This document shows positions 16,550 to 60,983 of a DNA stretch of 64,000 nucleotides, in pieces. The position numbers and the translations under genes were made by a program. Location: assembly GCA_965226555.1 (NCBI GenBank), contig CBDDDG010000010.1:224001-288000 (forward strand), in the 5' to 3' direction. Below the pieces are notes generated by a model. That model made no database searches and was not told the DNA's origin. It was given only the letters and a program-made list of their open reading frames with translations. The first letter of the stretch is position 1. Every line of letters begins with the position of its first letter. The stretch is from Salinispira sp. (GTDB lineage Bacteria; Spirochaetota; Spirochaetia; DSM-27196; Salinispiraceae).

Positions 16550-16558
16550 TGAATATGA

Positions 16559-16656
16559 CAAAGTTTTGCAGAATGCAAAACTTTCTACAAAATGCGAGAA
16601 TGCTCAGCACATAGAGTCATTCAAAATGTGAAACTTTTGCAAAATGCAAAAGTTTC
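16559..16656 (+). mobile_element. Palindromic MITE-like element, 98-bp copy
   Basis: CAAAGTTTTGC...GCAAAAGTTTC with three internal hairpins. Flanked by TATGA at 16554-16558 and 16657-16661. Confidence 0.75.
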
Positions 16657-16711
16657 TATGATCATATCACCGGCTATTCCGTTCCCAAAAAACAGCCGTT
16701 GTAATAATATA

Positions 16712-16785
16712 TGGGCCCAGTAGGACTTGAACCTACGACCAATGGATTATGAGTCCACTGCTCTAACCAACTGAGCTATGGGCCC
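16712..16785 (-). tRNA. tRNA with CAT anticodon, most likely tRNA-Ile2 (lysidine type)
   Basis: GGGCCCATAGCTCAGTTGGTTAGAGCAGTGGACT-CAT-AATCCATTGGTCGTAGGTTCAAGTCCTACTGGGCCCA folds as a cloverleaf and resembles Ile2 rather than initiator Met. CCA is not encoded. Confidence 0.93.
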
Positions 16786-16923
16786 GCAGTAATAAAAAGT
16801 ATCCGAATTATCGGCATTACTGTCAATCCTCGAAAATATTTTATCCAATACCCTTTGCATACATATTTTTGTTTGATATAATGATGACTTGTTGTGTTGT
16901 AAAGACACATAAAAGGAGGCTTT

Positions 16924-18564
16924 ATGAAAAAAGTAATAGCCAAAAAAATAATAGCCATACTTGTGTTCACACTTGTATGTTCAATGATCGTAAGCGCAGG
17001 CGGAGATGCGGAAAGCTCTGCATCGGAGTCAGTATCGGAAATGGTGCTGAACTGGAACCTTGCGGCGGATCCGAAAACACTCGACCCAGGCCTAGCCGGA
17101 GCGACTGATGAAGGCGATATTATTGCCAATACCTTTGAGGGTCTTATCAGGGAGCGCGGCGGAATAGTTGAGCCGGGTATTGCCGAAAGTTGGGAAATTT
17201 CTCCCGATGGACAGACGGTTACCTTCAATCTCCGCAGATCACAATGGTCAGACGGCTCCGATCTCACTGCCGATGACTTCGTCTATTCCTGGAAACGGGC
17301 AATTGATCCTGCAACAGCTGCAGAATACAGCTGGATCTGGAAATATACAAATGTTGTGAATGCAGATGACGCAACTTTAGGCAAAGTTTCACCAGACAGT
17401 GTCGGTGTACGGGCCATTGATGACTATACCCTTGAGGTAAAACTCATTGCGCCCACTCCCTACATTATCTCACTAACATCGTTCTACCACTTCATGCCGG
17501 TAAAGCAGTCTGCCGTTGAGGCAGGTCCTGAAGGCGCATGGGCAAAAGACCCCGAACTCTATGTTTCAAACGGTCCCTTCGTGCTGACATCGTACACAAT
17601 TGGAGATGGGCTCACTCTGGAGAAGAACCCCAATTTCTGGAATGCAGGTAATGTCAGTATTGATATGATAAACGTTAAGTTTATTGATGAATCCCCTACC
17701 GCGTACACCGCCTATGAGGCCGGCGAATTCGACTTTCTCAACGATGTTCCTCCTGCGGAAATCCCCCGCCTTGTTGCTGAAAACCCTGAATTCCACATTT
17801 TCCCCCTGCTTGGAACCTACTACTATAACTTCAACATGGATCTGCCTCGCTGGCAGGATCCGCTCGTGCGCAGGGCGCTCACCCTTTCCATTGACAGGGA
17901 GCAGATTGTCGAAGTGCTCGCACGCGGTAATGTACCCGCTCCGGGCTTTGTTCCTCCGGGTTTCCGTGATAATGATGGACGCGACTTTTTCGAAACTGCC
18001 GGAAACTACGGCATTATGACCGATAATTCGCAGTTCGCTGAAGCGCGCAGTCTTCTCGCTGAAGCCGGATATCCGAACGGAGAAGGATTTCCGAAGTTCA
18101 CCCTCATATACAACACCAGTGATGGGCATAAGCTTGTCGCTGAAATAATTCAGGAAGCATGGAAAACCAACCTCGGTATCGAAATTGACCTCGAAAACCA
18201 GGAATGGGCTGTATTTCAGGAAACCCGAAGACAGGGCGACTACGAACTGTCGCGCGGCGGCTGGCTAACAGACTTCTTGGATCCCAGCGGTCTGCTCGCC
18301 ATTTTTGAGACGGACAATAACTATAATGATCCCAACTTCGATAACTCCGCCTTCAACGAAGCAATGAAGCGCTCCCGCGAAGCTCCCGGCACTGCAGAGC
18401 ATTTCAATGCCCTCTATGAGGCGCAGGAAATTCTTATGACCGAGCTGCCTGTTATTCCGGTGTATCACTACACCGATTACATGCTCTCAAGTCCTCATGT
18501 CAAAGGATGGGAACGGAGTCTGCTGAGCGGAACTGATTTCCGCTATGCGACTGTCGAACGCTAA
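16924..18564 (+). CDS. oppA: Oligopeptide ABC transporter substrate-binding protein
   Basis: Signal peptide, TLDPG, FEGL, WSDGSDLTADDFVYSW, SNGPF. RBS AGGAGG. Confidence 0.93.
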   Translation: MKKVIAKKIIAILVFTLVCSMIVSAGGDAESSASESVSEMVLNWNLAADPKTLDPGLAGATDEGDIIANTFEGLIRERGGIVEPGIAESWEISPDGQTVTFNLRRSQWSDGSDLTADDFVYSWKRAIDPATAAEYSWIWKYTNVVNADDATLGKVSPDSVGVRAIDDYTLEVKLIAPTPYIISLTSFYHFMPVKQSAVEAGPEGAWAKDPELYVSNGPFVLTSYTIGDGLTLEKNPNFWNAGNVSIDMINVKFIDESPTAYTAYEAGEFDFLNDVPPAEIPRLVAENPEFHIFPLLGTYYYNFNMDLPRWQDPLVRRALTLSIDREQIVEVLARGNVPAPGFVPPGFRDNDGRDFFETAGNYGIMTDNSQFAEARSLLAEAGYPNGEGFPKFTLIYNTSDGHKLVAEIIQEAWKTNLGIEIDLENQEWAVFQETRRQGDYELSRGGWLTDFLDPSGLLAIFETDNNYNDPNFDNSAFNEAMKRSREAPGTAEHFNALYEAQEILMTELPVIPVYHYTDYMLSSPHVKGWERSLLSGTDFRYATVER

Positions 18565-18667
18565 ATTGTCGATTGGCGCCGATTGCGCCGAATTCCGATA
18601 TTTTGTCGGAATGATGTTCAGGCGCCGGCGGCAGGGTCATTGCTGCCGGTTGTCCTGCCTATTTGTG

Positions 18668-18775
18668 TAGCCCGCAGCGTGCGGCAGCGGCTTGGTATTA
18701 CTCTGTGTAACCCTCCTTATAAGATTGTAGCCCGCAGTATGCGGCGCTACTGCTGCTGCCGCACGCTGCGGGCTA
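18668..18775. repeat. Intergenic inverted/direct repeat between oppA and oppB
   Basis: TAGCCCGCAGCGTGCGGCAGC (18668-18688) has a perfect inverse at 18755-18775 and a second, partial direct copy at 18728. Confidence 0.75.
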
Positions 18776-18803
18776 TGTAAACGTGCTGCCCGGAGGAAAT
18801 TGT

Positions 18804-19733
18804 ATGGTCAAGTATTTTCTTAAGCGCCTCGCGTATTCGCTTTTTACCATCTTCGTTATAATTACGGTACTTTTTTTCGTGCTCCGCTCCATACCGGGCG
18901 GTCCCTTCACCCGGGAAAGAGCCATTCCCGATGAAATTCTCCGTATTATTGAACAAAAATATAACCTTGATCTCCCCCTGTATCAGCAGTATTTCAATTA
19001 TCTTAAGGGACTCATTACCTTTGATTTCGGCCCCTCGTATCAGAAAATTGGGACAAGCGTAAACGATATTATTGAGGCGGGCTTCCCGAACACTGCGCGT
19101 GTCGGCTTTTTTGCCGTTTTGTTTATTATCATTGTCGGAATACCGGTGGGCATTATCTCTGCCCTCAAAATGGGCAAGCCTGTGGACTATATGGTCATGT
19201 TTATGGCCACACTCGGCGTAACTCTGCCGAGTTTTGTTGTGGCAACACTGTTCATTCATTTATTCGCCGGAAAACTTGACTGGGTTCCTCCCTTCGGCAT
19301 AGGCCTTCCCGCCGGTTATATTGGTCCTGTGCTCGCGCTGTCGGGTTATTCTCTGTCCTTCGTGGCGCGTCTTACCCGATCCAGTATGCTTGAAGTACTC
19401 CGTGCCGACTACATTCAGACAGCTCGGGCAAATGGTCTCAGCGAATTTTCTGTTATTGTCAAACATGCGGTGAAAAACGCCATTATTCCTGTCATTACCT
19501 ACATGGGACCAACCATAGCAACTATTCTGACCGGCTCCTTCGTTGTTGAGAGGATATTTGCCATTCCGGGAATTGGGCGCTATTTTGTGGAAAGCGTCAC
19601 CAACAGAGATTACACAACCTATATGGCAGTAACCATTCTTTTTGCCGTCTTTTATGTGTTTATGATTCTTCTGGTGGATATTGCCTACGCGCTTGTTGAC
19701 CCGAGAATTCGTTTTGAAAAGGAAAAGGGGTAG
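18804..19733 (+). CDS. oppB: Oligopeptide ABC transporter permease
   Basis: IPGGPF, DFGPSY, EAA-like loop DYIQTARANGL, VERIFAIPGIG. GGAGG before ATG 18804. Confidence 0.93.
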   Translation: MVKYFLKRLAYSLFTIFVIITVLFFVLRSIPGGPFTRERAIPDEILRIIEQKYNLDLPLYQQYFNYLKGLITFDFGPSYQKIGTSVNDIIEAGFPNTARVGFFAVLFIIIVGIPVGIISALKMGKPVDYMVMFMATLGVTLPSFVVATLFIHLFAGKLDWVPPFGIGLPAGYIGPVLALSGYSLSFVARLTRSSMLEVLRADYIQTARANGLSEFSVIVKHAVKNAIIPVITYMGPTIATILTGSFVVERIFAIPGIGRYFVESVTNRDYTTYMAVTILFAVFYVFMILLVDIAYALVDPRIRFEKEKG

Positions 19734-19736
19734 GCT

Positions 19737-20942: not shown

Positions 20943-20955
20943 GGGGAGTAATGGA

Positions 20956-21963: not shown

Positions 21964-21978
21964 AGGGAGAAGTTGATC

Positions 21979-22953: not shown

Positions 22954-23334
22954 GCGGCGGGCACGGGGCGCTGGTGATCGGCAATTACCGTGAATAATTG
23001 GAATTTCCTGTCGGGACAGTTTTTGCCGGAAGCCATATAAGGGTTCAATAGCCGCTGAGGGCTATGGGTTATGAAACTAATCATTTACCATGTCACCATC
23101 AATGTGTTTGGAAAGAATTTTGCAAAATTGTGAATTTTTTCGGGGCGGGCGGGGAGATGGAGTCTGCTCAAATGTTTATTTCCAATAAAATTCATGTAAG
23201 TAGTTGATATTTCAGATACTTTGTGGTAACCTTTGTATAAGGTTTCAGTGCGTATCTGCAATGAAACATAGACAAAGTTTTGCAAAATGCAAAACTTTCT
23301 AGAGACAAATATTTTTAGAGAAAGAGGTATTAGT

Positions 23335-24612
23335 ATGATGTTTACTTTTAATCCACTACGAAAGTTATGGGGAGGGTTTCCTGGTTTTGTTGCAATAATC
23401 GTGATTCTCATCGCCTTACTTGCTGGATGTCCAATGCCGGAACCAACTCCTGACTCCGAGCCCATGACGGAACCCGAGCCCATGCCGGAACCCGAGCCCA
23501 TGACGGAAGCAACCCCTCCAAGCACCATGGATGCTCCCGCGATCACCGTTGGACACACCCAGCTCACCGCGACATGGAGCCCCCCCAACAATGACGGCGG
23601 CAGTGAAATTACTGCGTACCATGTGCAGCACAAAATAAGCGCCGCAGAATGGCCAGAGGACGACACAACGGACACCGCCATTATCAGTGATACTACTATC
23701 ACAAGCCACCCCATTACCGGGCTGATAAATGGCAACGTCTACGATGTGCGGGTGCGCGCGGTCAACATGCAGGGCAATGGGGTTTGGTCTGAACACGCAT
23801 CAGCAATGTTGCCGATTCCTGTGACACAGACTCCTGCGGGTACGGCAGCGACGGTAAGCCTATCGGCTGCCGCGCGAGCCATTATTGCCGATGAGAGCCC
23901 AACCGTTACGTTGACCATCGTGGAACAGGGTACCCTCGCGGTTAGTGCATCAGGAGTCAGTATCACTCCCGCAACTACGCCCGCAGGGCTTACCGTTCCG
24001 ACAGTTGATTCGGGTACCGGCATGGTTACGGTTGCTGCGGATACAACGGCAGGGACATATCTGGTATATGGCGAAACCGGAACAGGAGATATACTCTTTG
24101 CTGAATATTTCTTTGTTACCGTGAGTCCTCAAGATAAAACCGAACTGCAAGCAATAGTAACTGCGGCGATAGGAAACATCAACGATGCTAATGATTCTGG
24201 AATCTGGGGCGATACTGCCAATCTCAACTACATTATTACTACGGCAGTAACGGATATGTCCAATATGTTCCAGAGTGCAAGTGCATTCAATGGCGATATC
24301 TCGGGCTGGGATGTCAGCGCGGTAACGACTATGCGGTCGATGTTCTTTCAGGCAAGCACATTCAATAGCGATATCACCGGCTGGGATGTCAGCGCGGTAA
24401 CGGATATAGCTTGGATGTTCTATCAGGCAAGCGCATTCAATCGCGATCTTGAGGAGTGGAAGGATCATTGGACACTCAGTGATAACAAATACACCCTTGG
24501 CAAATACACCGGAGCAAAAGGCGGTATGTTTTTGTTTTCCGGCGTGGTGACGAATACGGACGGGTCGGATATGAGTAAGCCTACAGGTGTGGGTGCTCCG
24601 TCATGGTATTAG
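23335..24612 (+). CDS. Surface lipoprotein: Fn3 domain + DUF285/BspA-like repeats
   Basis: Lipobox LLAG-C, PEPMTE repeats, one Fn3 (NDGGSEITAY...VRVRAVN), 25-aa repeats MF..A.AFN.DI.GWDVSAVT. Start taken at ATG 23335 after AGAGG. Confidence 0.82.
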   Translation: MMFTFNPLRKLWGGFPGFVAIIVILIALLAGCPMPEPTPDSEPMTEPEPMPEPEPMTEATPPSTMDAPAITVGHTQLTATWSPPNNDGGSEITAYHVQHKISAAEWPEDDTTDTAIISDTTITSHPITGLINGNVYDVRVRAVNMQGNGVWSEHASAMLPIPVTQTPAGTAATVSLSAAARAIIADESPTVTLTIVEQGTLAVSASGVSITPATTPAGLTVPTVDSGTGMVTVAADTTAGTYLVYGETGTGDILFAEYFFVTVSPQDKTELQAIVTAAIGNINDANDSGIWGDTANLNYIITTAVTDMSNMFQSASAFNGDISGWDVSAVTTMRSMFFQASTFNSDITGWDVSAVTDIAWMFYQASAFNRDLEEWKDHWTLSDNKYTLGKYTGAKGGMFLFSGVVTNTDGSDMSKPTGVGAPSWY

Positions 24613-26445: not shown

Positions 26446-26484
26446 CAAAGTTTTGCTACTGAAAATTTTGCTCTCAAAAGTTTC
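26446..26484 (+). mobile_element. Short (39-bp) copy of the palindromic element
   Basis: CAAAGTTTTGC...CAAAAGTTTC flanked by AATAA at 26441-26445 and 26485-26489. Confidence 0.7.
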
Positions 26485-26499
26485 AATAAGGAAAGAGAT

Positions 26500-27420: not shown

Positions 27421-27425
27421 CAGAC

Positions 27426-27977: not shown

Positions 27978-27988
27978 TCCTCTCGGGC

Positions 27989-29719: not shown

Positions 29720-29772
29720 TGATGTGGTATACCTCGTAAAAAATACTGATAGAAACTTTGTGATAGAAACGT

Positions 29773-30393: not shown

Positions 30394-30429
30394 TCTCATT
30401 GACCTGTATGCCCGAGTTCCATATTCTAT

Positions 30430-32937: not shown

Positions 32938-32965
32938 ACTGTCCTCCTGCCTAATGTTTTCCGGT

Positions 32966-33013
32966 CGGCTTCACATGAGCACGGCTTCACATGAGCGCGG
33001 CTTCACATGGGCG
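32966..33013. repeat. Three tandem 16-bp copies of the thrS stop-codon region
   Basis: CGGCTTCACATGAGCA / CGGCTTCACATGAGCG / CGGCTTCACATGGGCG. Confidence 0.75.
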
Positions 33014-36230: not shown

Positions 36231-36434
36231 TCGATATGCCCTGTGAAAATTTTGCTACTGAAAATTTTGCTCTGCAAAATTCTTTGTGAAAGTTCTGCAA
36301 AAATTTCTCATGCAATAATATAGGATTTTTGTAGGGAATGTAAATAGTTTTTTGTGCAGATGGTGGAATATAAACCTTTGGACAGCCCCCCTCCCGTCCA
36401 CTTATTCCGCATTCCCGAGCCCTCCCTCCCGTAG

Positions 36435-36515: not shown

Positions 36516-37321
36516 GGAGAGAATTCACCATGGGACCATGTCGCCATGGGAACTCCCCTATTCAGAAAGAAACGTTCAGGAGGATTGTATGATCGATTTC
36601 AAAGAAAAACCCGCCCCCGTTCCCTACGACCAAGGATACCGCTCCCTGCTGTTCCAACCCGCAATAATGCTCCAATTTCTTCAACGCTTTGTTGGAGGCG
36701 CGTGGACGAAAAAACTCCGCCGTGAAGATATAACCATCGAAAACGGCACATTTTTCATCGACCATGCGAAAACACGGATGGCCGACATTGTCTGCAAAAT
36801 AACGCAGAAGGATCACACGGGAGATGTTGTCATTTATGTGCTCCTTGAGCATCAGTCCGGCGTGGACAAAGACATGCCCCTTCGCATGTCGGAGTATACG
36901 AATCTGCTCTACCGGAACATTCACCGATCTGGAGCAATTCCCGATGACTGCGAGTTGGTATTTCTGCCCATTGTGTTCTATAATGGTACGAGAAAATGGA
37001 AGGTGCCAGGGAACGTCAGAGAGCAACGGAAGCGGGAATTCCCGCAGTATCTTGCTCCTTTTCCTTATGATCTGATAAGTGAGAGCGATTATTCTGCGGA
37101 GCAGCTACAGAGTCGGGGAAGAATGTTTGCGGCTGTTATGTACCTTGATCTGTACTCGAAAAATCTGCTGAATACGGATTGGGACATTCGGAAGGTGGAG
37201 AAAGCGATAGCAGAAATGCTGAATGAAGAATCGCTGGAGCTGATAGAGGAATTTATCGGCGTGGTAGATTCGATGTTTGGAATAGTTATAGACTTCGATA
37301 CGCTAATGAAACAATTAGAAG

Positions 37322-37447
37322 CAAAGTTTTGCCAGAGGCAAAACTTTCTATAAAATTGGAGAATGCTAAGCACAAAGAAAGCATTCCAAATTTGAAACTT
37401 TTGCTATTGGAAATTGTGCTTGCACAATTTTCCAATGCAAAAGTTTC
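37322..37447 (+). mobile_element. Palindromic MITE-like element, 126-bp copy inside Rpn gene 2
   Basis: Homologous to 16559-16656 and to the reverse complement of 60678-60804. Flanks AGAAG / AGAAA. Confidence 0.8.
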
Positions 37448-37487
37448 AGAAAGAACAAAAGAACCGAGAGGTAAGGAGGTAGCGAAA

Positions 37488-37832
37488 ATGTTCAGAATGA
37501 ATGCGGAAACATTCAGAGCGCGCATTGCGGAGATGGGTCGGCAGGAAGGCCTGCGAACAGGCCGTGAAGAAGGATTGCAAACAGGTCGGCAGGAAGGACT
37601 TCAGACAGGATTGCAAACAGGCCGTGAAGAAGGACTTCAGAAGGGGCTACAGACAGGTCGACAGGAAGGACTTCAAAAGGGGCTACAGGCAGGCCGCGCT
37701 GAGGGGCATATTGAGGAGCGGAGAAAAAACGCCCGTAGTATGTTTTTGGAAGGCTTGTCGACAGAGGCTGTTCAGAGGATTACCGGGCTGAGCGATGAGG
37801 AAATGCGGACATTGCGGAACGGATCGCATTAA
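37488..37832 (+). CDS. Small C-terminal Rpn protein (Rpn-S-like) from an internal start
   Basis: Strong SD AAGGAGGT then ATG 37488. 12/24-bp repeats encode G(R/L)(Q/E)(E/T/K)G, followed by an HTH-like tail. Confidence 0.65.
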   Translation: MFRMNAETFRARIAEMGRQEGLRTGREEGLQTGRQEGLQTGLQTGREEGLQKGLQTGRQEGLQKGLQAGRAEGHIEERRKNARSMFLEGLSTEAVQRITGLSDEEMRTLRNGSH

Positions 37833-37857
37833 GTTGGAACCGCTCGGCCTGCGCGCT

Positions 37858-40702: not shown

Positions 40703-43700
40703 TTACTCGGGTAGTAAATATTTTTGTCTTATGACTCTTCTTTCACCACCAGAAATTTGCCATTCAACAGTGACATAATCACTTCCCCCGCCTTCCTTGT
40801 GAAGTACTTCAACGTAATACTTGGTACCGGCAACTAAGTTTTGGGTCACTGATTGCCGTTTGTTATCAGAGGCAATTTTTTGTTTGCTATCTGGAGAAGA
40901 ACCAAAATACAATTCAGCCTGATTATCAGCAGCAATCCAGAACGTATAGGTTCCTGTTACCTGTGGTGTAATATACCCATATATTCTTTGGCCGTAATCA
41001 TTTCTCCAATTTTTTGGAGCGACAAAATCATAAACCACACTGCGATAATCGGGATTATGAGGATAATTTGAATTATTCGTTAAATCGGCAATGCTGTTGC
41101 CGGTAATGTCAAGCCAGAGATCTCTTTTCAGTCCGCCGCCAACGGGGAAAGATACCTTACTCGCAGAAGGTAATCTACGGGTAGGATCCCCAACCTCAAG
41201 CATCGCCCTGAGAAGTGACCGAGGATCTTGTAGTGGAAGATCAAAACCCATTTCCCAGATCATGATTCCTCCCAGTTTTTCATTAATTGCCATATTTGTT
41301 TTTCTCTTGATCAGATCAATATTGTTAATTTTATAGCCATCTACAACATTTTGAGAAGAAGGCATATCAGGATAGTTTGTCCGAATAGTACGATATGAAG
41401 ATTCATATCCATCCCAGAAAGTATACCAGGCCTGTGGCGCTGACGCTGGAGCAACCCCATAGAAGCCAGTCCCAATGTTTAGTTGCTCACGCGCAAATCC
41501 TTTGTCAAGGAATGCATTCATCTCATCTACCGCATCACCATATGTATCATTACCCCATTCACCAAAACTATCCTGGCCCGAACTCTCGTATGCCATAATA
41601 TTCACATAATCAACGGCATTGACAACTGAGGCAGGCGCAGAATCTATTAGGGACAAACCACTAACTACAGCAATTGAGAGTTTTTTCCCATCCGCATTCA
41701 ATTCTGCTTTCAACTCGGTTAAATAGGTAACAAATGCAGGCCATTGACCGCTAGATGGCCATTCCCAATCGATATCAAGACCATAAAAACCGTTATTAAC
41801 AATAAACTCTACTATATTCCGGATATTTTTCGCCCGCTTTGTTGGATTACCTATGATATTGCCCAGTCCGCCGCCGCTGGGTGATGACCCCGCGCTGTAC
41901 CATAGCCGCGCGCTCTTTCCGGCGGCAGCTGTTTTAAAATTCTGCAGCCCATCTGGTTGAGAATCGGGTTCGAGTATATCAATATACGTATGAGCAAGAA
42001 GAATGACATCTGTCAGATAATCAAATATATTATCTTCAACGTAATATTGAGTATTATCCGTAGAATCATTATAATCAAAATCACGATACGGGGTATACCC
42101 GACAATTCGCAGCTTGGGATTGCCGACAGGTGTAGTTGCCGAAGCAGCTTCTGACCAATCACTCAGACCCGCAGCGTTCCGTGCGAGAATCCGCACATCA
42201 TACTTGGTGCTCTCATACAGTCCCGTAATGGTGTAGATCTTGTACGCGGCAATTGGAATTACAATAATAGGAGCAGCATTCATCCAGTTACTTTCCGAGA
42301 GCTTATACTGTAGTTGATACCCGGTAATGGGGGTGCCGCCATTGGCCGGCGCCGTCCATGTTGCGGTAATTTTCCCACTCCTCGCGACAAGACTGGGAGC
42401 AGCAGGCGCAGAAGGAGGACTGAATGTACTCTCCGAAACAGTTTGTGACCAATCACCCAGACCCAGACCGTTCAGTGCGCGCATCCGCACATCATACCTC
42501 GTGCTCTCACGCAGTCCCGTAATCTCGTAGGTGGCGGCAGCGCTCCCAATTACAATCGTATTCCCCCAGCTGCTTGTAGAGTTAGGCTTATACTGTAGAT
42601 GATACGAGCTAATGCGGCGGCCGCCATTGTTCGGCTCCGTCCATGTTACGGTAATTTTCCCACCCCCCGCGACAAGCATAGGAACAGGCGCAGAAGGAGG
42701 ACCGACTGGAGTTGCAACAGCAGGTGCTGACCACGAACTATTGCCCCCCTTATTTACGGCAAGCACTACTACACCGTAGGCAATGGTGTTTGTCAATCCG
42801 GTAATGGTGTGGCTTGTGCCGGTAATTCCCTCAATGCTCCCTATCAAGCTACTATCAGACGTATTATTTGAATCATAATATAACAATTCATACCCGGTAA
42901 TGGAGCCGCCGCCGTTCTCTTCCGGCGCCGTCCATGTTGCAATAATCTGCCTATCACCCGCGACAAGCGTGGGAGGAGCAGGCGCAGAAGGAGGTGCTGC
43001 AGGGGTTGCTGTGGCCGATGCGCCCCACGCGCCCACACCCATCGCATTCACAAAGCGCACCTGTACTTCATAGCTGTTGCCGTTTGTCAGTCCGGTAATT
43101 ATATGACTACATACTTCGTCGACCGTATCCTTGCATATGTTCGTGAATCCGGAGGTAATCTCCGTCCAGCTTCCGCTGCTGCCTTCGCGATAACGCAGGT
43201 GAGAGGCAGTGATCGCACTCTCGCCATCATCGCTTGAGATCCTCAACTGGAATATATGAACCACAAGTTCCGTGTTCCGTATTTCAATTGTCGGAGCAGC
43301 AGGCGCAGGAGGAGGTGCTGCGGGGGTTGCTGCGGCACTTTCCGACGGGGTGCTATTGCCCGTGACATTGACAGCGTACACCTGCACCTCGTACGCGGTA
43401 CCGTTTGTTAGGCCCGTAATGGTGTGGCTTGTCGCGGCAATGGAGGAAATGGTCGTTGTCGTATTCGAATCCAGCCAGCTTCCTGCCGGGCTGGTAACTT
43501 CGCGATACTGTAGTTCATAGGTAATAGGGCTGCCGCCGTCATCGGTCGGAGCCGTCCATGCTGCGGTAATCTGCGTATCTCCTGCTGTGAGCACAAGCGC
43601 GGTCGGCCGCATGGGAAGATTGCCAACAGGGGATGCTCCTGTACTCGGTTCCGACCATTCGCCCTTCCCCATCACGTTCACGGCGCGTGCGCGCACCTCG

Positions 43701-44688
43701 TACGCGGTGCTGTTTGTCAGGTCCGTGATGGTGTGGCTTGTCGCAGTACCTTCAACAATAATAGCGGGATCGTCCGCTTCAGGAATCCAGTTTTCTGCCG
43801 GGCTGGCAACTTCGCGATACTGTAGTTCATACCCGGTAATGGGGCTGCCGCCATTGTTCGGAGCAGTCCAGTGAACCGTGAGTTCCCCATTCCCCGGGAC
43901 AAGCCTGGGAGCAGCAGGCGCGACAGGAGGTGTTGCGGGGGTTGCTATGGCACTTTCCGACGGGGTACCACCGCCCGTGACATTGACAGCGTACACCTGC
44001 ACCTCGTACGCGGTACCGTTTGTCAGCCCCGTAATGGTGTGGCTTGTGTTTATGCCGATGCACGTCGGGGGAAATGGTCGTTGTCGTATTCGAATCCAGC
44101 CAGCTTCCTGCCGGGTCGGCAACTTCGCGATACTGTAGTTCATATCCGGTAATGGGGCTGCCTCCGTCATCGGCAGGCGCCGTCCATGCTGCGGTAATGT
44201 TCGTATCTCCTGCTGTGAGCACAAGCGCGGTCGGCTGCATGGGAAGATTGTCAACAGGGACTCCTCCTGTCGCTCGGTTCCGACCATTCGCCCTTCCCCA
44301 TCACGTTCACGGCGCGTGCGCGCACCTCGTACTCGGTGCTGTTTGTCATGCCCGTGATGGTGTGGCTTGTCGCAGTACTTTCAACAATAATAGCGGGATC
44401 GTCCGCTTCAGGAATCCAGTTTCCTGCCGGTCCGGCAACTTCGCGATACTGTAGTTCATATCCGGTAATGGGGCTGCCTCCGTCATCGGCAGGCGCCGTC
44501 CAGTGAACCGTGAGTTCCTCATCCCCCGGGACAAGCCTAGGAGCAGCCATTTCGCCCGGCGGGGTTGAGACCGCCACCGGCTCCGCCGCCGAATCGATAT
44601 CCAGTATTGGACATCCGGCAAGCAATGCAATAAAAATTGCGCTCAGTACAAGAATAATTGGTATAATATGGGATTTTTTGAAACACAT
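40703..44688 (-). pseudogene. Degraded duplicate of the Fn3x8-GH18-PA14 lipoprotein
   Basis: Near-identical to 45897-49898 but has two frameshifts (+1 near 44269; 12 nt replaced by 22 nt at 44048-44069) and lacks the 56-bp segment carrying the RBS. GH18 motif GLDIDWE is retained. Assembly error cannot be excluded. Confidence 0.75.
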
Positions 44689-44839
44689 ACTGTAGGGTAA
44701 CAGAATGTGCTGGAGAATTGTGGGGTAATTTTTTCTGAAATGTGGTAATTTCTTAACCATTAAACAAAACTGCCGCGCATATTTATGAAGCGGTTCTGTC
44801 ATCCAGATTAATGTTGATTATTTCAGGTAAGTTGCCGTT

Positions 44840-45896
44840 TTACACAGTTTCCACAAACACGTACCATGTAAAACCGCGCGCTGCTATTGATACCGGTATA
44901 TCAATGCAGTAATTTCGGTCGAGAATATATTTCTCATATGTGCGTTCTTTCTCGGATACGTACACATTTTCGGAAAGTCCCGTATAGTAGAGAGGAATTT
45001 TTATACGTTCTTCCAATGTATGTGAAGATGGGTTATAGAATAGTGCTAATCCTCTATTGTATGGTATTTTGTAAGCGGACAAAATGTCCATAACATTGTT
45101 GGAGGTCTGTCCCATGTTCCATCGTATATATTCTGCCGCCCCAGTACTATCTGCCTGTTTCGCGGTAAGCTCCAATTTACCTCTCTGTACCCAACACCTG
45201 TCTGATTTGATCCGGATAGCATATATGAATCGGGAACACGTACATACACACCGCGGGAGCGAAGCCATGTGTAGAAAGCAATTATCGTTTGCCATTGTGT
45301 CCATATGGAATCGCCAAGTCCCTTATGACCAGGATGTTTTGTAGAGGCACATACATCAGCAGGATATGAACCATCATGAACGAATGTTTTTAGATCTAAT
45401 TCTTCAAAAATGGAATAAAGAGAATCAAAATACCTCTGTCCCCATTCTGATCCAAGGCACGGAGAATTTCCAAACCGGGGGGCACCCTTGATATGCAGTA
45501 CTGTCTCGTCTACTTCCTGAATTGCTTCAATGCCCTCTTCGAGAACCGGAGCGCTGATACTGCTGGTCTTACCGGTAAAAGGATTTACGACATCATGTTC
45601 ATCACTTATGCTTCTCGACGCCAGAAGAGAATATCCGCCATATTCTATTTTCTCATTGTCCAGCACATTACCGTATTGTTTCCTGAATTGTTTAAGCATT
45701 TCCATAAATTCTGCATTTGTCTGACTGCCCGTTCCACATCCTGTGCTTTGTTGGAAATGAGATGAAACATTAAAGGATTTTCAGTAACCCATGGGGCAAT
45801 GGTTCTGTACATTTGGGAGCGGGCCAAACCTCTCCGTTGCCTGTCGGTACTGGAATGAATGAGTTGATATTCACGAAATCCGGTAAGTTCGGCACA
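44840..45896 (-). pseudogene. Fragmented glycoside hydrolase (alpha-galactosidase-like) remnant
   Basis: Pieces in different frames: MYRTIAPWVTENP; GNSPCLGSEWG..HDGSYP..GYREVNWSLPR..RQNIYDGTW; GLALFYNP..IPLYYTGL. No 5' end, apparent internal deletions. Confidence 0.6.
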
Positions 45897-48800
45897 TTAT
45901 GGTTCTAAATATTTTTGTCTTATGACCCCTCTTTCACCACCAGAAATTTGCCATGCAACAGCAACATGATCGCCTCCCCCGCCTGCCTTGTGAAGTACTT
46001 CAACATAATACCGAGTACCGGCAACTAAATTTTGGGTCACTGATTGCTGTGAGCTATATTTATCCCATTGATCTACATTAGTCCCTCCCGACTCGGGAAT
46101 GGAGGCAATTTTTTGTGTGCTATTTGGAGAAGAACCAAAATACAGTGCAGCCTGATTATCAGCAGCAATCCAGAACGTATAGGTTCCTGTTACCTGTGGT
46201 GTAATATACCCATATATTCTTTGGCCGTAATTATCTCTCCAATTTTTTGGAGCGACAAAATCATAAACCACACTGTGATAATCGGGATTATGAGGATAAT
46301 TTGAATTATTCGTTAAATTGGCAATGGTGTCGCCGGTAATGTTAAGCCAGATATCTCTTTTCAGTCCGCCGCCAACGGGGAAAGATACCTTACTCGCAGA
46401 AGGTAATGTACGGGTAGGCTCCGCAATCTCAACCATCGCCCTGAGAAGTGACCGAGGATCTTGTAGTGGAATATCAAAACCCATTTCCCAGATCATGAGT
46501 CCTCCCAGATTTTCATTAATTGCCAGATTTGTTTTTCTCTTGATCAGATCAATATTGTTAAAAGCATAGCCATCTGCAACATCTTGAGAAGAAGGCATAT
46601 CAGGATAGAGTGTCCGAATAGTACGATATGATCCTTCATATCCATCCCAGAAATTATACCAGCCGTGTGGCAATGACCCTTCATTGGTATGGCGTCCATA
46701 GAAGGCAACCGCAATGTTTATTTGCTCACGCGTAAATCCTTTGTTAAGGAATGCATTCATCTCATCTACCGCATCACTATAGGTAGCATGACCACCTCCG
46801 CCCCGCCTATCGTATGCCATAACATTCACATAATCAACGGCATTGACAACTGAGGCAGGCGCAGAACCTATATTCCCACTATATGAAGCAATTGAGAGTT
46901 TTTTCCCCTCCGCATGCAATGCTGCTTTCAACTCGGTCAAATAGGTATTAAATGCAGGCCATTGACCGCCAGAGGGGTATTCCCAATCGATATCAAGACC
47001 ATAAAAACCGTTATTAACAATAAACCCTACTACATTCCGGATGTTTTCCGCCCGCTTTGTTGGATTACCTATGATATTGCCCAGTCCGCCGCCGCTGGGT
47101 GATGACCCCGAGCAGTACCATAACCGCGCTCTCTTTCCGGCGGCAGCTGTTTTAAAATTCTGCAGCCCATCTGGTTGAGAATCGGGTGTGAGTATATCAA
47201 TATACGTATGAGCAAGAAGAATGGCATCTGTCAGATAATCAAATACATTATCTTCAATTAAATATTGAGTAATATCCGTAGAATCAGTATACGCAAAATC
47301 ACGATACGGGGTATACCCGACAATTCGCAGCTTGGGATTGCCATTGCCGAGGGGTGTAGTTGCCGAAGCAGCTTCTGACCAATCACTCAGACCCGCAGCG
47401 TTCCTTGCGAGAATCCGCACATCATACTTGGTGTCCCCATACAGTCCCGTAATGGTGTAGATGGGAAACCTGTGCGCGGGAATTTCAATAATAGGAGCAG
47501 CATTCATCCAGTTACTTTCCGAGAGCTTATACTGTAGATGATACAAGAAAATGGGGGTGCCGCCATTGGCCGGCGCCGTCCATGTTGCGGTAATTTCCCC
47601 ATTCCCCGCAACAAGACTGGGAGCAGCAGGCGCAGAAGGAGGACCGAATGTACTCTCCGAAACAGTTTGTGACCAATCACCCAGACCCAGACCGTTCCGT
47701 GCGCGCATCCGCACATCATACCTCGTGCTCTCACGCAGTCCCGTAATGTCGTAGGTGGCGGAGGCGCTCCCAATTACAATCGTATCTCCCCAGCTGCTTG
47801 TAGAGTTAGGCTTATACTGTAGATGATACGAGCTAATGCGGCGGCCGCCATTGTTCGGCTCCGTCCATGTTACGGTAATTTTCCCACCCCCCGCGACAAG
47901 CATAGGAACAGGCGCAGAAGGAGGACCGACTGGAGTTGCAACAGCAGGTGCTGACCACGGACTATTGCCCCCCTTATTTACGGCAAGCACTACTACACCG
48001 TAGGCAATGGTGTTTGTCAATCCGGTAATGGTGTGGCTTGTGCCGGTAATTCCCTCAATGCTCCCTATCAAGCTACTATCAGACGGATTATTTGAATCAT
48101 AATATAACAATTCATACCCGGTAATGGAGCCGCCGCCGTCCTCGGTCGGCGCCGTCCATGTTGCAATAATCTGCCTATCACCCGCGACAAGCGTGGGAGG
48201 AGCAGGCGCAGAAGGAGGTGCTGCAGGGGTTGCTGTGGCCGATGCGCCCCACGCGCCCACACCCATCGCATTCACAAAGCGCACCTGTACTTCATAGCTG
48301 TTGCCGTTTGTCAGTCCGGTAATTATATGACTACATACGTCGACCGTATCCTTGCATATGTTCGTGAAGCCGGAGGTAATCTCCGTCCAGCTTCCGCTGC
48401 TGCCCTCGCGATAACGCAGGTGAGAGGCAGTGATCGCACTCTCGCCATCATCGCTTGATATCCTCAACTGGAATATATGAACCACAAGTTCCGTGTCCCT
48501 TATTTCAATTGTCGGAGCAGCAGGCGCAGGAGGAGGTGCTGCGGGGGTTGCTGCGGCACTTTCCGACGGGGTGCTATTGCCCGTGACATTGACAGCGTAC
48601 ACCTGCACCTCGTACGCGGTACCGTTTGTTAGGCCCGTAATGGTGTGGCTTGTCGCGGCAATGGAGGAAATGGTCGTTGTCGTATTCGAATCCAGCCAGC
48701 TTCCTGCCGGGCTGGTAACTTCGCGATACTGTAGTTCATAGGTAATAGGGCTGCCGCCGTCATCGGTCGGAGCCGTCCATGCTGCGGTAATCTGCGTATC

Positions 48801-49898
48801 TCCTGCTGTGAGCACAAGCGCGGTCGGCCGCATGGGAAGATTGCCAACAGGGGATGCTCCTGTACTCGGTTCCGACCATTCGCCCTTCCCCATCACGTTC
48901 ACGGCGCGTGCGCGCACCTCGTACGCGGTGCTGTTTTTCAGGTCCGTGATGGTGTGGCTTGTCGCAGTACCTTCAACAATAATAGCGGGATCGTCCGCTT
49001 CAGGAATCCAGTTTCCTGCCGGTCCGGCAACTTCGCGATACTGTAGTTCATACCCGGTAATGGGGCTGCCGCCATTGTTCGGAGAAGTCCAGTGAACCGT
49101 GAGTTCCCCATTCCCCGGGACAAGCGTGGGAGCAGCAGGCGCTACAGGAGGTGTTGCGGGGGTTGCTATGGCACTTTCCGACGGGGTACCACCGCCCGTG
49201 ACATTGACAGCGTACACCTGCACCTCGTACGCGGTACCGTTTGTTAGGCCCGTAATGGTGTGGCTTGTCGCGGCAATGGAGGAAATGGTCGTTGTCGTAT
49301 TCGAATCCAGCCAGCTTCCTGCCGGGTCGGCAACTTCGCGATACTGTAGTTCATATCCGGTAATGGCGGGTCTGCCGTTCTCTTCCGGCGCCGTCCATGT
49401 TGCGATAATCTGCGTATCTCCTGCTGTGAGCACAAGCGCGGTCGGCCGCATGGGAAGATTGCCAACAGGGGCTCCTCCTTCGCTCGGTTCCGACCAGTCG
49501 CCCTTCCCCATCACGTTCACGGCGCGTGCGCGCACCTCGTACTCGGTGCTGTTTGTCATGCCCGTGATGGTGTGGCTTGTCGCAGTACTTTCAACAATAA
49601 TAGCGGGATCGTCCGCTTCAGGAATCCAGTTTTCTGCCGGTCCGGCAACTTCGCGATACTGTAGTTCATATCCGGTAATGGGGCTGCCTCCGTCATCGGC
49701 AGGCGCCGTCCAGTGAACCGTGAGTTCCTCATCCCCCGGGACAAGCCTAGGAGCAGCCATTTCGCCCGGCGGGGTTGAGACCGCCACCGGCTCCGCCGCC
49801 GAATCGATATCCAGTATTGGACATCCGGCAAGCAATGCAATAAAAATTGCACTCAGTACAAGAATAATTGGTATAATATGGGATTTTTTGAAACACAT
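45897..49898 (-). CDS. Surface lipoprotein: 8 Fn3 domains + GH18 chitinase-like domain + PA14 domain
   Basis: RBS GGAGG, lipobox LLAG-C, eight Fn3 repeats, GLDIDWEYP (DxDxE), VNVMAYD, GGLMIWE, and PA14 motif GYITP..TGTYTFWIAADN. Confidence 0.9.
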   Translation of the reverse strand: MCFKKSHIIPIILVLSAIFIALLAGCPILDIDSAAEPVAVSTPPGEMAAPRLVPGDEELTVHWTAPADDGGSPITGYELQYREVAGPAENWIPEADDPAIIVESTATSHTITGMTNSTEYEVRARAVNVMGKGDWSEPSEGGAPVGNLPMRPTALVLTAGDTQIIATWTAPEENGRPAITGYELQYREVADPAGSWLDSNTTTTISSIAATSHTITGLTNGTAYEVQVYAVNVTGGGTPSESAIATPATPPVAPAAPTLVPGNGELTVHWTSPNNGGSPITGYELQYREVAGPAGNWIPEADDPAIIVEGTATSHTITDLKNSTAYEVRARAVNVMGKGEWSEPSTGASPVGNLPMRPTALVLTAGDTQITAAWTAPTDDGGSPITYELQYREVTSPAGSWLDSNTTTTISSIAATSHTITGLTNGTAYEVQVYAVNVTGNSTPSESAAATPAAPPPAPAAPTIEIRDTELVVHIFQLRISSDDGESAITASHLRYREGSSGSWTEITSGFTNICKDTVDVCSHIITGLTNGNSYEVQVRFVNAMGVGAWGASATATPAAPPSAPAPPTLVAGDRQIIATWTAPTEDGGGSITGYELLYYDSNNPSDSSLIGSIEGITGTSHTITGLTNTIAYGVVVLAVNKGGNSPWSAPAVATPVGPPSAPVPMLVAGGGKITVTWTEPNNGGRRISSYHLQYKPNSTSSWGDTIVIGSASATYDITGLRESTRYDVRMRARNGLGLGDWSQTVSESTFGPPSAPAAPSLVAGNGEITATWTAPANGGTPIFLYHLQYKLSESNWMNAAPIIEIPAHRFPIYTITGLYGDTKYDVRILARNAAGLSDWSEAASATTPLGNGNPKLRIVGYTPYRDFAYTDSTDITQYLIEDNVFDYLTDAILLAHTYIDILTPDSQPDGLQNFKTAAAGKRARLWYCSGSSPSGGGLGNIIGNPTKRAENIRNVVGFIVNNGFYGLDIDWEYPSGGQWPAFNTYLTELKAALHAEGKKLSIASYSGNIGSAPASVVNAVDYVNVMAYDRRGGGGHATYSDAVDEMNAFLNKGFTREQINIAVAFYGRHTNEGSLPHGWYNFWDGYEGSYRTIRTLYPDMPSSQDVADGYAFNNIDLIKRKTNLAINENLGGLMIWEMGFDIPLQDPRSLLRAMVEIAEPTRTLPSASKVSFPVGGGLKRDIWLNITGDTIANLTNNSNYPHNPDYHSVVYDFVAPKNWRDNYGQRIYGYITPQVTGTYTFWIAADNQAALYFGSSPNSTQKIASIPESGGTNVDQWDKYSSQQSVTQNLVAGTRYYVEVLHKAGGGGDHVAVAWQISGGERGVIRQKYLEP

Positions 49899-50130
49899 AA
49901 TGTAGCCTCCAGCATAAAATTGTTTGGATTATAGGTACATTTCCTATAATATATTCTGTAGGGTAACAGAATGTGCTGGAGAATTGTGGGGTAATTTTTT
50001 CTGAAATGTGGTAATTATTTTAAATAACCGGCTGTCTGAAGACAATCAGACAACCATGAAGTGTATCAGCCTCTCTCCCATCCACAAACCTGTCCTGCCA
50101 ATATGCTCAGAAAGGGCATGTCGATAGATT

Positions 50131-55288: not shown

Positions 55289-55358
55289 TATTATTCTCCT
55301 AAAAATTTGAATGATCTATTAGAAACTTTTGTATTAGAAACTTTTGCATAACTTTCTC

Positions 55359-56693: not shown

Positions 56694-56702
56694 ACCCGTC
56701 TC

Positions 56703-58277: not shown

Positions 58278-58278
58278 A

Positions 58279-58974
58279 TTATTCTTCCCGACGTTCTTCG
58301 TGAATGATTTTGCCATCTTGCAGCTTGATAATGTGGTCGGCTATGTCGACAATGGTTGCGTCGTGGGTGGAAAAAATGAAGGTGGTCTCTTGGTCGCGGT
58401 TTACTTTTTTCATGAGTTCAATAATTTGTTCACCGGTTTTGGAGTCGAGGTTGGCGGTGGGTTCATCGGCGAGTACTACCTGCGGCTTACAGACGAGCGC
58501 CCGCGCAATGGCTACCCGCTGACGCTGTCCGCCCGAGAGCTCATTCGGCCGGTGATTACGCCAATTACTGAGCCCGACCTCTTCAATAAGATAGTCAATC
58601 CATTCCGTCTTCTCGTTCTTTTCCATTTTTGTTTTTCCAAGCAGAAGAGGAAATTCAATGTTTTCAAATACATTCAGCACGGGAATGAGATTAAAGCTCT
58701 GAAAAATAAAACCAATGAAACGATGACGAAGCTGGGTAATCTCTTTGTCTTTTAATGTCTTTGTATCGATCTCATCGATAATAACTGAACCTTCGGTCGG
58801 AATGTCGATGCAGCCGAGAAGGTTTAAAATGGTCGACTTGCCCGAACCTGAGGGTCCGGCAATGGAAATAAAGTCTCCCTTCTGAATTTGAGAACTCACA
58901 CCCCGAACTGCGTGAATTTCAGTTTTGCCAAGCGGATATACTTTATGTATATCTTTCATTTCTACAATAGCCAC
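58279..58974 (-). CDS. ABC transporter ATP-binding protein (LolD/MacB-like)
   Basis: GPSGSGKS, LSGGQRQR, ADEPTANLD, STHD. GTG start. Confidence 0.93.
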   Translation of the reverse strand: MAIVEMKDIHKVYPLGKTEIHAVRGVSSQIQKGDFISIAGPSGSGKSTILNLLGCIDIPTEGSVIIDEIDTKTLKDKEITQLRHRFIGFIFQSFNLIPVLNVFENIEFPLLLGKTKMEKNEKTEWIDYLIEEVGLSNWRNHRPNELSGGQRQRVAIARALVCKPQVVLADEPTANLDSKTGEQIIELMKKVNRDQETTFIFSTHDATIVDIADHIIKLQDGKIIHEERREE

Positions 58975-59091
58975 AGATATCTCCCCATTACGTACTTCAA
59001 GAACATTTTACATTGATAAAGTTTTGCATTGATAAAGTTACAAAAATACATGGGGTTTGTAAAGTGAAATTTTTGCTTTATTCAAACATTT

Positions 59092-60657
59092 CTATTCTTC
59101 AATTTCTTCAAACAGGGTGTAGGCATAGAGTTTAGCGCCCCCAGCAGTAATAGGAGGAGTAGTAGAAGTACCAGCACCATTCACATCACTTGCTATCCAC
59201 ATCGTTCTTCCATCTGACCAGATACCGGTATTATCTGTGTTTTCGATATCATTGAGTGTGAACGTTTTTGTTGGATCGGAGGTTCCGTCACTCATCTTGT
59301 AGGCGGCAATCCGAGTTCTCATAACATCGGTACCCATATCATCAATGGTAACATCAGCCAGTATCCACAGTGTGGTTCCATCTGACCATATACCTTCGAG
59401 CCTACCCAGATTATCGCTTAGGTTGATATCTTTTGCAGAATCAGCTTCTCCGGTACTCAGCTTGTAGGCATAGATTTTTTTATTACTACCATTAGTATCT
59501 GCCACCCACATTGTCGTTCCGTTCGACCAGATGCCTGCGGGAATTGTGCCTGAGTACACTCCGCTTACGGGATATGGAGCGCCACTGACAGTGAAACTTT
59601 TGTTTGTGTCTGGCATTGGATCAAAGTTTCCGTTACTCATTTTATTATGGGCGTGGATGTTAGCATGAGAACCATATTCTCCCTCTGTCACCCACATCGT
59701 TTCTCCATCTGACCAGATATACAAGGGTTGATAGGAGAGATTGATATCACTTCCTGACATACGGGTTTTGTCACTCACTTTGTAGGCATAGATTTTTCTA
59801 TTATCACTAGTATCTGCCACCCACATTGTCGTCTCATCCGACCAAATGCCGTAGGGGTAACTGATTACGGCACCCGCCATATCCAGACTATCGAAATTCT
59901 TACTTTCGTCATAGGCGCCGACAAATTTCAGCCCTCCGGATTGAGATGGAGACCACGCGCCATTGCCCTGCGCATTGGCGGCGCGGACACGCACATCGTA
60001 GCTCATGCCGTTTTCGAGGTTCATAATGGTGTGGGTTGTAGCTGGCGCGGCGACAGTAATAGCAGCGATGCTCGTTGTGTTATCTGGCGGCCAGTCATCG
60101 GCGCTGAGTTTGCGCTGCACATGGTACTCGGTAATGGCGCTGCCGCCATTATCTTTCGGAGCAGTCCATGTAGCAGTGATTTCCCCATTCCCCGCTTCGA
60201 GGGTTGGAGCATCCGGCGCGGCAGGAACGGCAACAGGGGTTGCGACGGCAGATTTCGACCATGCGCTGGGTCCCTGCGCGTTAACGGCGCGCACCTGTAC
60301 TTCGTAGGTGTTGCCGTTTGTCAGTCCGGTAATGATCCGGCTTGCGCTGGTAATGCCGGAAATATCCGTCCATGCTCCGCCGCCTGTGCGATATTGCAGC
60401 TCATACCCGGTAATGGCGCTGCCGCCATCGTCCGGCGCAGTCCATGTTGCGGTAAGTATCGCATTCCCCGATTCAAGGGTTGGCGCAGCCATTGTGCCCG
60501 GCACAGTTGGATCGGGTGGATCGGGTTCCGGTGTTGGGCATCCGCTGAGTACCAGCGCCGCAACAATGAAGGTAAGTATCGCTCTGAAAAAACGGAACTT
60601 GTGTTGTGTTGTGTTGTGTTGTGTTGTGTTGTGTTGTGTTGTGTTGTCTGAAATCAT
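59092..60657 (-). CDS. Surface lipoprotein: 2 Fn3 domains + GIWSDG-repeat beta-propeller; SSR in the signal peptide
   Basis: RBS AAGGAG, lipobox VLSG-C, two Fn3, five (G/Y)IWS(D/N)xxT(M/L)W repeats. Confidence 0.82.
   Translation of the reverse strand: MISDNTTQHNTTQHNTTQHKFRFFRAILTFIVAALVLSGCPTPEPDPPDPTVPGTMAAPTLESGNAILTATWTAPDDGGSAITGYELQYRTGGGAWTDISGITSASRIITGLTNGNTYEVQVRAVNAQGPSAWSKSAVATPVAVPAAPDAPTLEAGNGEITATWTAPKDNGGSAITEYHVQRKLSADDWPPDNTTSIAAITVAAPATTHTIMNLENGMSYDVRVRAANAQGNGAWSPSQSGGLKFVGAYDESKNFDSLDMAGAVISYPYGIWSDETTMWVADTSDNRKIYAYKVSDKTRMSGSDINLSYQPLYIWSDGETMWVTEGEYGSHANIHAHNKMSNGNFDPMPDTNKSFTVSGAPYPVSGVYSGTIPAGIWSNGTTMWVADTNGSNKKIYAYKLSTGEADSAKDINLSDNLGRLEGIWSDGTTLWILADVTIDDMGTDVMRTRIAAYKMSDGTSDPTKTFTLNDIENTDNTGIWSDGRTMWIASDVNGAGTSTTPPITAGGAKLYAYTLFEEIEE
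60601..60645 (-). repeat. Pentanucleotide simple sequence repeat, 9 units
   Basis: (GTGTT)9 on the + strand, 12 nt after the start codon. Encodes NTTQH x3. Confidence 0.95.
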
Positions 60658-60677
60658 ATAATCTCCTTTGAATATCA

Positions 60678-60804
60678 GAAACTTTTGCTGCTGAAAATTG
60701 TGCAGAGCTCAATTTTCAGCAGCAAAAGTTTCCGATCTGGAATGCTTTCTTTGTGCTTAGCATTCTCCTATTTTATAGAAAGTTTTGCATTTTGCAAAAC
60801 TTTG
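60678..60804 (-). mobile_element. Palindromic MITE-like element, 127-bp copy, followed by a variant copy (60810-60884)
   Basis: Reverse complement aligns along its length with 37322-37447. Flanked by TATCA at 60673-60677 and 60805-60809. Confidence 0.78.
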
Positions 60805-60983
60805 TATCAGAAACTTTTGCATTGATAAAGTTTTGCCTCAACGGAAAATTGTGCAGAGCTCAATTTTCAGCAGCAAAACTTTCCATATCTTGAGAAAATC
60901 AAGAATATCACAAAATTTTCTATAAGTATACTACGAAAACCATATAATTGCAATTTTTCAATAGCCAATGCGATTCTGTGAAA

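Follow-up and report, generated by a model that had tools for sequence, protein, structure and literature searches.

Palindromic repeats of the REP/BIME-RAYT and IS200/IS605-derived types consist of modular hairpins with compensated stems. MITEPsy1 of Pseudomonas syringae, a transposable element of the miniature inverted-repeat type (MITE), is described in the available part of its report (PMC3189936) as a gene-less element of approximately 100 bp with IS5-type ends and a 4-bp target duplication, present in one size and six copies; its transposition in vivo is shown, and a resident IS5 element is presumed to mobilise it in trans. ISAba23 is, in the accessible text of PMC4110982, an IS5-family element of 1249 bp that has a 5-bp duplication. 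The Rickettsia palindromic elements are, in the available part of PMC10969869, palindromic repeats of 100-150 bp, some of which lie within coding DNA and which often fuse in frame into conserved genes. In this report, a family of short hairpin elements is analysed in a 64,000-nucleotide stretch of Salinispira sp. (contig CBDDDG010000010.1, C10:224001-288000; the whole stretch is termed the window) and in its genome (2.98 Mb in 26 contigs, 93.5% complete). We consider it likely, with a probability of about 0.72, that the 98-169-bp copies of this family are mobilised in trans by IS5a, an insertion sequence (IS) of the same genome, and that the 27- and 54-bp forms are remnants of collapsed copies.

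The nearest described pair is MITEPsy1/ISPsy2. The family resembles MITEPsy1 in its gene-less structure, IS5-type ends and target duplication, but duplicates 5 bp, comprises hundreds of copies of 27-225 bp and contains a subclass that does not duplicate its target. With the ISAba23-type IS5 elements (model NF033581), the Salinispira system has in common the ends GAAACCTTTGC, the 5-bp duplication and a resident transposase, that of IS5a, whose nearest named relatives are the ISAba23-family transposases (46% identity). The MITE itself differs from these elements, because it contains neither a transposase gene nor internal homology to the IS, matches its ends over 10-11 bp only and has extra end-like half-sites inside. 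The likeness to the Rickettsia palindromic elements, which had been suggested from the letters of the window alone (hereafter the sequence-only reading), is superficial: the copies lie between genes or interrupt rpn and IS genes, and those in rpn genes break the frame instead of joining a conserved gene in frame. The REP/RAYT and IS200/IS605-derived elements share the modular compensated hairpins, and the older subclass of the family resembles them in lacking a duplication. They differ in that a Y1 transposase is not found in the genome, the young class duplicates its target, and the surroundings of the non-duplicated sites show no evident fixed target motif of 4-5 bases.

Insertion with a 5-bp duplication

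By a looser hairpin definition, the family comprises 520 loci and occupies 37 kb, or 1.25% of the genome. The genome contains 1051 hairpin units, compared with 0 in a locally shuffled copy, and 1168 exact half-sites; AAAGTTTTGC occurs 719 times, compared with 48 expected from an order-5 Markov model. A full copy consists of the left end SAAAGTTTTGC, hairpin 1, a middle hairpin of 44-45 bp, hairpin 3 and the right end GCAAAAGTTTC. Both hairpin 1 and hairpin 3 are in turn composed of end-like 11-mers, and each is 27 or 54 bp long, giving full copies of 98, 126 and 153 bp; the 168-169-bp form is a full copy with a 42-bp cassette. The terminal inverted repeats match at 9-10 of 11 positions, and duplicated copies span 27-225 bp without a transposase gene. 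The elements lie outside genes in 364 of 519 cases, and the 44 overlaps with open reading frames (ORFs) other than rpn are, by eye, mostly with spurious ORFs or over-called N-termini.

Among 116 pairs of exact ends (CAAAG..GTTTC), 33 have a perfect 5-bp repeat at the exact boundaries. Unequal shifting of these boundaries yields at most one perfect repeat, while equal shifting yields up to 17, which are probably the same sites, because the C ending the element often also precedes the target. When all end types are included, perfect 5-bp duplications are present in 92 of 756 pairs whose ends lie no more than 300 bp from each other, compared with 16 of 2517 longer pairs, and include the GC-containing duplications TCCCC, CGACA and CCCGT. 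The 78 independent perfectly duplicated sites have the consensus c-TWNWA-g, with T first or A last in 76%, compared with 31% in the flanks.

A paralogous site is available for 206 of the 520 elements, with a modal overlap of 5 bp (95 elements) and one of 4 bp in 35; the elements with empty paralogues reduce to 34 independent sites. An orthologous empty site is present in a related strain, in which contigs of runs X4 and X5 skip exactly 32 bp at C10:458632, corresponding to a 27-bp copy plus 5 bp (five bases are ambiguous). One related-strain contig near this site contains a 57-base insertion missing from this genome, and one X4 contig has 30 gapped letters over the 39-bp copy of the window, in a read overlay dominated by other repeats. 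In this overlay, run X1 agrees with the genome in every letter and may be the run from which it was derived. These results show that the elements insert with a 5-bp duplication at c-TWNWA-g targets. The family consists of genuine gene-less mobile elements of the MITE type, as the sequence-only reading had proposed from four copies: shortness, terminal inverted repeats, duplication and multiple copies with empty sites are all found, and both the genome-wide excess of 5-bp duplications at the end motifs and the empty site in a related genome, which that reading had named as checks, are present.

The copies and family matches in the window are as follows.

6696..6721, + strand: 27-bp-type hairpin split by IS3, with its last base at 7990, after the IS
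16554-16558 and 16657-16661: TATGA duplication of the 98-bp copy
16559..16656, + strand: 98-bp copy (27-bp hairpin, 44-bp middle, 27-bp hairpin), intergenic, ahead of a tRNA gene
23273..23299, + strand: complete copy of 27 bp, flanked by the 4-bp duplication TAGA; an empty paralogous site is present
26446..26484, + strand: 39-bp collapsed copy with duplication AATAA, the left one of which ends in the stop codon of a GDPD gene
36260..36307, no strand assigned: degenerate copy upstream of the rpn gene that contains the 126-bp copy, a family match
37322..37447, + strand: 126-bp copy within an rpn gene, flanked by AGAAG/AGAAA; the empty allele of the paralogues is AGAAA
37858..37941, no strand assigned: degenerate nested copy right after the stop codon of this rpn gene
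55322..55356, no strand assigned: 35-bp family match, absent from the sequence-only reading
59011..59095, no strand assigned: decayed half-site remnants
60678..60804, - strand: 127-bp copy with duplication TATCA
60810..60883, no strand assigned: second, nested-type copy, which adjoins the 127-bp copy across a shared 5-bp TATCA
62667..62690, + strand: truncated 27-bp hairpin

The coordinates, lengths, ends and flanks of the four copies reported earlier (TATGA, AATAA, AGAAG/AGAAA and TATCA) agree exactly with this analysis. The sites reported as partial relatives near 36243, 37858, 59011 and 62667 are family matches, while 23273-23299 is complete, the site near 6695 is the IS3-split hairpin and that near 60810 is the second element beside the 127-bp copy. 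IS3 (6722-7985) has inserted into a hairpin of the family and is flanked by a CTTT duplication, and its ends are unrelated to the family, as had been stated.

The 98-, 126- and 127-bp copies form three hairpins in series, as claimed for the long copies, with DNA folding z-scores of -6.1, -8.7 and -10.8 respectively and 0 of 200 shuffles as good. The 39-bp copy does not fold significantly better than its shuffles, of which 14 in 200 do as well (z -1.7). That the stems stay paired while the loops vary is supported by covariation, judged from the counts of paired variants: the short hairpin has a paired closing position in 186 of 207 cases (C-G 95, A-T 91), and pairing is kept at the inner positions of the stem in 371 of 421. 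The claim is refined in that the loop variants are largely reverse-complement pairs (AAAAT/ATTTT, CTGTG/CACAG), indicating loop inversion. Compensated stems and such loop pairs together would fit template switching at the DNA level. The tRNA is the only match in an Rfam search of the window. A promoter-like arrangement, TTGCCA-16-TAAAAT followed by AGGAG, lies at 37329-37356 within the 126-bp copy; a sigma-70-like scan of this copy gives 1 match compared with 0.5 expected, which is not significant.

A GC-rich hairpin repeat of 41-42 bp (at least 56 matches) is located within the 168-bp form and also occurs in tandem arrays (C14:99133, C19:23821, C11:59893-60010 and others). It is inserted in the transposase gene of a second IS5 element, IS5b, where it adds 14 residues in frame; one IS5b copy is without it. 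IS1182-like copies at C23:12934 and C1:190838 end 3-4 bases from family half-sites, suggesting hairpin targeting. Comparison of a third element, IS5c, at C6 ~3250 with C21:310740 reveals an apparent footprint of imprecise MITE loss, in which a left-end remnant is fused to the downstream sequence and creates a stop.

No element was detected by blastn among 30 relatives, and the 27-mer pattern was found in none of 400 genomes from the phylum, in no viral contigs and in one metagenome contig, in an unrelated repetitive context. IS5a was not found in 40 relatives at 1e-30. No description of this MITE family was found in the literature searched, which comprised sources other than subscription journals and supplements; the available parts of PMC3184786, PMC5350276 and PMC3454330 hold nothing on it.

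IS5a as the candidate mobiliser

IS5a is a 1340-bp IS5-family element located outside the window, and was recognised by clustering the proteome into multi-copy protein families. Its left end is GAAACCTTTGC and its right end is TCAAAGGTTTC or TCAAAAGTTTC, with the right-end consensus CAAARGTTTC. A perfect 5-bp duplication is present in 7 of 10 copies with the left end (TTATA twice, ACGTA, TATTA, TAATA, TATAA and TCATA), with A last in 7/7 and T first in 6/7. Seven of its ORFs are full length and intact, with 99-100% identity. The transposase scores above the cut-off of NF033581 and carries what we take to be DDE-type motifs. At Acinetobacter and Moraxella loci of its homologues the ends are GAAACCTTTGC...GCAAAGGTCTC, and 5-bp duplications are present in 5 of the 17 loci examined.

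The right end of the MITE read inwards, GAAACTTTTGC, matches the IS5a left end at 10 of 11 positions, and some IS5a right ends share CAAAAGTTTC exactly with the MITE. The ends of the two elements match at 10/11, or exactly over 10 bp, on the right and at 8-9/11 on the left. Full copies with the right end exactly GAAACYTTTG have a perfect duplication at 31 of 53 sites, compared with 2 of 34 for the others. The end match, duplication length and T..A target bias of an IS5-derived element are found, while an interior formed by deletion is not. The earlier statement that no cognate transposase is obvious holds for the window but not for the genome, where IS5a has near-identical ends and the same duplication length and target bias. 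A transposase-bearing long copy with exact MITE ends did not stand out among end pairs up to 12 kb; IS5a was missed by this search because its end reads GAAACC.

According to the model preferred here, a full copy inserts at c-TWNWA-g with a 5-bp target duplication, the DDE enzyme of IS5a probably being the one that moves it, as judged from ends, duplication length and target bias. Slippage between two left-type or two right-type half-sites would then delete the middle, and template switching would flip loops. Insertions tolerated in rpn genes would later be copied with the paralogues, giving the enrichment there.

IS3, the IS982-, IS30- and IS1182-like elements, IS5c and two more IS families were rejected as mobilisers, their ends being unrelated. 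IS110/IS1111 DEDD recombinases (PF02371), Y1 HUH transposases (PF01797) and resolvase families were not found in the 93.5% complete genome. Three tyrosine-recombinase matches are present, of which the one examined lies beside ORFs that we take to be hslV- and dprA-like and is presumably a housekeeping Xer. A preference of IS5a or IS5b for sites beside MITE ends was not detected by a strict test (0/15); two of their copies adjoin an AAAGTTTC.

Several results weigh against mobilisation by IS5a followed by collapse. Age, and boundaries miscalled in degenerate copies, may account in part for the association of the right-end match with duplication. The left end of the MITE is never exact to an IS end (mostly 1-2 mismatches in 10). 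Local alignment of the MITE middle with IS5a scores within shuffles and gives no homology, which lowers the probability that the MITE is a deletion derivative of IS5a, not that it is moved by IS5a. IS5b (ends GAGACCATTGC) has a 5-bp duplication in 5 of 5 copies and could contribute. The role of IS5a is inferred from sequence alone, no transposition having been observed, and the orthologous empty site is one site from one study, with a contig depth of 4-5. Only 5 of 24 duplicated 39-59-bp copies are exactly derivable from a present full copy. Duplication does not extend to all subfamilies: among 87 independent full-length sites, it is found at 24/44 for subfamily m1, 4/6 for m1L and 4/9 for m2, these three being homogeneous, but at 1/26 for m4 and 0/2 for m3. 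At the 22 of 34 sites that have a 5-nt empty allele (the 12 sites without one were left out), the junctions are perfect in 6, and mismatches number 31 at inner, element-adjoining positions compared with 4 at outer positions. This skew is not predicted by random decay, and the model leaves the non-duplicated junctions of m4 unaccounted for.

Older junctions, short forms and the rpn genes

At nine hand-picked sites, none of which has an outer mismatch, the left flank is a hybrid of target bases 1-3 and AA, AC or GA, and the right flank a hybrid of AGT, GGT, TGT or TGG and target bases 4-5. At one of them the flanks are CCTAA/GGTAC and the empty allele is CCTAC. Five bp are still gained at such junctions, but are element-borne. 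Manual comparison of the hybrid junctions with four possible sources, namely inversion, hairpin extension, retention of a flap and an enzyme that duplicates TA, gave none that fits all sites.

A tentative possibility is that the m4-type copies, which often lie inside rpn (YhgA-like) genes, entered by a second chemistry operating alongside IS5a-mediated insertion. A circle or tandem-dimer junction, right end-DGTRM-left end, would cross over with the target between bases 3 and 4 of a 5-bp core. An undescribed mode of the IS5 transposase, the enzyme of a lost element or an Rpn nuclease would be responsible. The nine sites and the 31 to 4 skew at the 22 unselected sites agree with this chemistry. 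So does a right flank starting with DG(T/G) at 14 of 31 rpn-internal sites compared with 34 of 313 outside ORFs, and the end-to-end junctions in tandem copies have 5-bp spacers at 9 of 10 junctions. However, the m4 copies look old, with more diverged middles and more paralogous copies, so that gene conversion among elements or rpn paralogues may have rewritten their junctions. Different element types occupy the same site, no circle was observed, and the genome has yielded no IS110, Y1 or resolvase-type enzyme; Rpn proteins are judged very unlikely to be transposases in the available part of PMC10400941. It is doubtful that one IS5 DDE system has two undescribed behaviours, namely use of 27-bp cruciform substrates and spacer-crossover integration without duplication, the latter preferentially recorded in the 200-locus rpn expansion.

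The 27- and 54-bp forms probably arose when 98-169-bp copies collapsed after their insertion. Hairpins 1 and 3 are direct repeats at both half-sites, so that one slip removes the middle, and the product would be a 27- or 54-bp chimera between the original duplications. One site has alleles of 126, 55, 54 and 25 bp among paralogues, and another has 54, 126 and 153 bp. Of 16 duplicated 27-mers, 12 are exactly derivable from a full copy by one deletion. The stem centre is mismatched in 47 of 60 stand-alone 27-mers, while the hairpins within full copies are mostly paired there. A perfect duplication is kept by 17 of 60 stand-alone 27-mers, 18 of 76 54-mers and 32 of 59 young full copies. The 54-bp hairpin may have arisen by nesting of an m4 copy within the loop of a 27-bp hairpin, an arrangement seen at C1:162383.

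It is improbable that the lone 27- or 54-bp palindrome itself transposes, a proposal that is limited to the short forms and in which the enzyme is still that of IS5a. In this mechanism a cruciform would be extruded, each arm would serve as one IS5 end, the two 3' ends would be joined to a target with a 5-bp stagger, and the arms would re-anneal. Of the 78 independent perfectly duplicated sites, 16 hold 27 bp and 18 hold 54-55 bp, but at least one of these 27-mers is hairpin 1 of a longer copy. The 27+5-bp difference from the related strain, the compensatory stem changes and the 19 of 24 mid-size copies without exact derivation from present full copies favour such movement. This last test can be defeated by loop inversions and point changes, and lone-hairpin movement is therefore kept among the readings. 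The chimeric 27-mers with a stem-centre mismatch are as collapse predicts, length changes in place are observed, and to our knowledge duplex DNA does not allow the synapsis of two ends separated by 5 bp.

The 126-bp copy of the window interrupts an rpn gene, which is divided as follows.

36589..37353, + strand: N-terminal portion of the rpn (PF04754) gene, which is terminated by a TAA that lies within the element
37488..37832, + strand: C-terminal RpnS-like ORF, intact downstream of the element; it has 4-residue repeats and an AAGGAGG site of its own

The copy shifts the frame of rpn, so that the nuclease part ends after 254 residues, while the internal AAGGAGG and the RpnS-like ORF remain intact. 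This insertion is common to 10 rpn paralogues, of which 9 keep the RpnS-like frame. The genome contains 140 PF04754 matches, or 202 rpn loci by our own profile, compared with 0-4 in seven relatives from the same taxonomic family. The approximately 200 loci, among them 10891-11853 and 36589-37832 of the window, occupy about 185 kb, or 6% of the genome; only 48 are a single full-length ORF and 67 have an element inside. Their C-terminal part contains variable 4-residue repeats. At three divergent rpn subfamilies (C2:40577, C14:104555 and C26:17064), differing element types and orientations occupy the same codon, just ahead of an I-E-x-K/Q motif, with the right flank GTATT.

The available text of PMC10400941 gives 26 Rpn copies in one Bacillus strain and argues that these proteins are toxin-antitoxin nucleases, not transposases. 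Mobilisation of the whole family by the Rpn/YhgA-like nucleases is very unlikely. Elements overlap rpn loci in 122 of 520 cases, compared with a mean of 43 and a maximum of 54 in 30 random placements, and the relatives searched lack the repeat as well as the rpn expansion. However, the 111 rpn-internal copies represent at most 31 independent sites, compared with 313 outside ORFs, so that tolerance and co-duplication are enough for the enrichment. The elements break rpn genes rather than bound them, few long end pairs are duplicated (the 16 of 2517), and ends, duplication and target are already accounted for by IS5a. A fixed protein-binding operator or terminator with chance flanking repeats in AT-rich DNA, which the palindromic 11-5-11 layout and the placement outside genes might suggest and which, for an operator, the sequence-only reading had named as one outcome that would overturn it, is refuted as the origin of the motif by the empty paralogous and orthologous sites, is contradicted by the GC-containing duplications and is practically excluded.

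Other features of the window and significance

A defence-like island at 158-16549, ending at a tRNA gene, contains type I restriction subunits, AAA/AbiEii-like ATPases, an HNH nuclease, DUF6978 and DUF1828/1829. Its hsdR contains an irregular tandem repeat of 15-21 bp (12729-12956), and a (TTGTG)n run is located at a lipoprotein gene start (60597-60647); both are possible phase-variable tracts. Large paralogous families of fibronectin-III and DUF285 lipoproteins occupy 23287-24612, 40703-49898 and 59092-62744, and two of these lipoproteins, which lie in a tandem duplication of 5.2 kb, carry GH18 and PA14 domains.

The pairing of a MITE with an IS5 element is of an ordinary, known kind; unusual are the 27-bp forms and the older non-duplicating junctions. 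Enzyme and substrate are present in one genome together with a natural size series of 27-169 bp, so that the minimum size of a DDE substrate, and hairpin extrusion as opposed to looping, are directly testable. If lone 27-bp cruciforms are indeed substrates, they would be far smaller than ordinary MITEs. The element-specific inner bases at the non-duplicated junctions are a clean anomaly, which is not predicted by standard cut-and-paste transposition. In addition, the family preserves a record of how a very large rpn expansion decays; in one instance an antitoxin-like C-terminal ORF is left intact behind a truncated nuclease.

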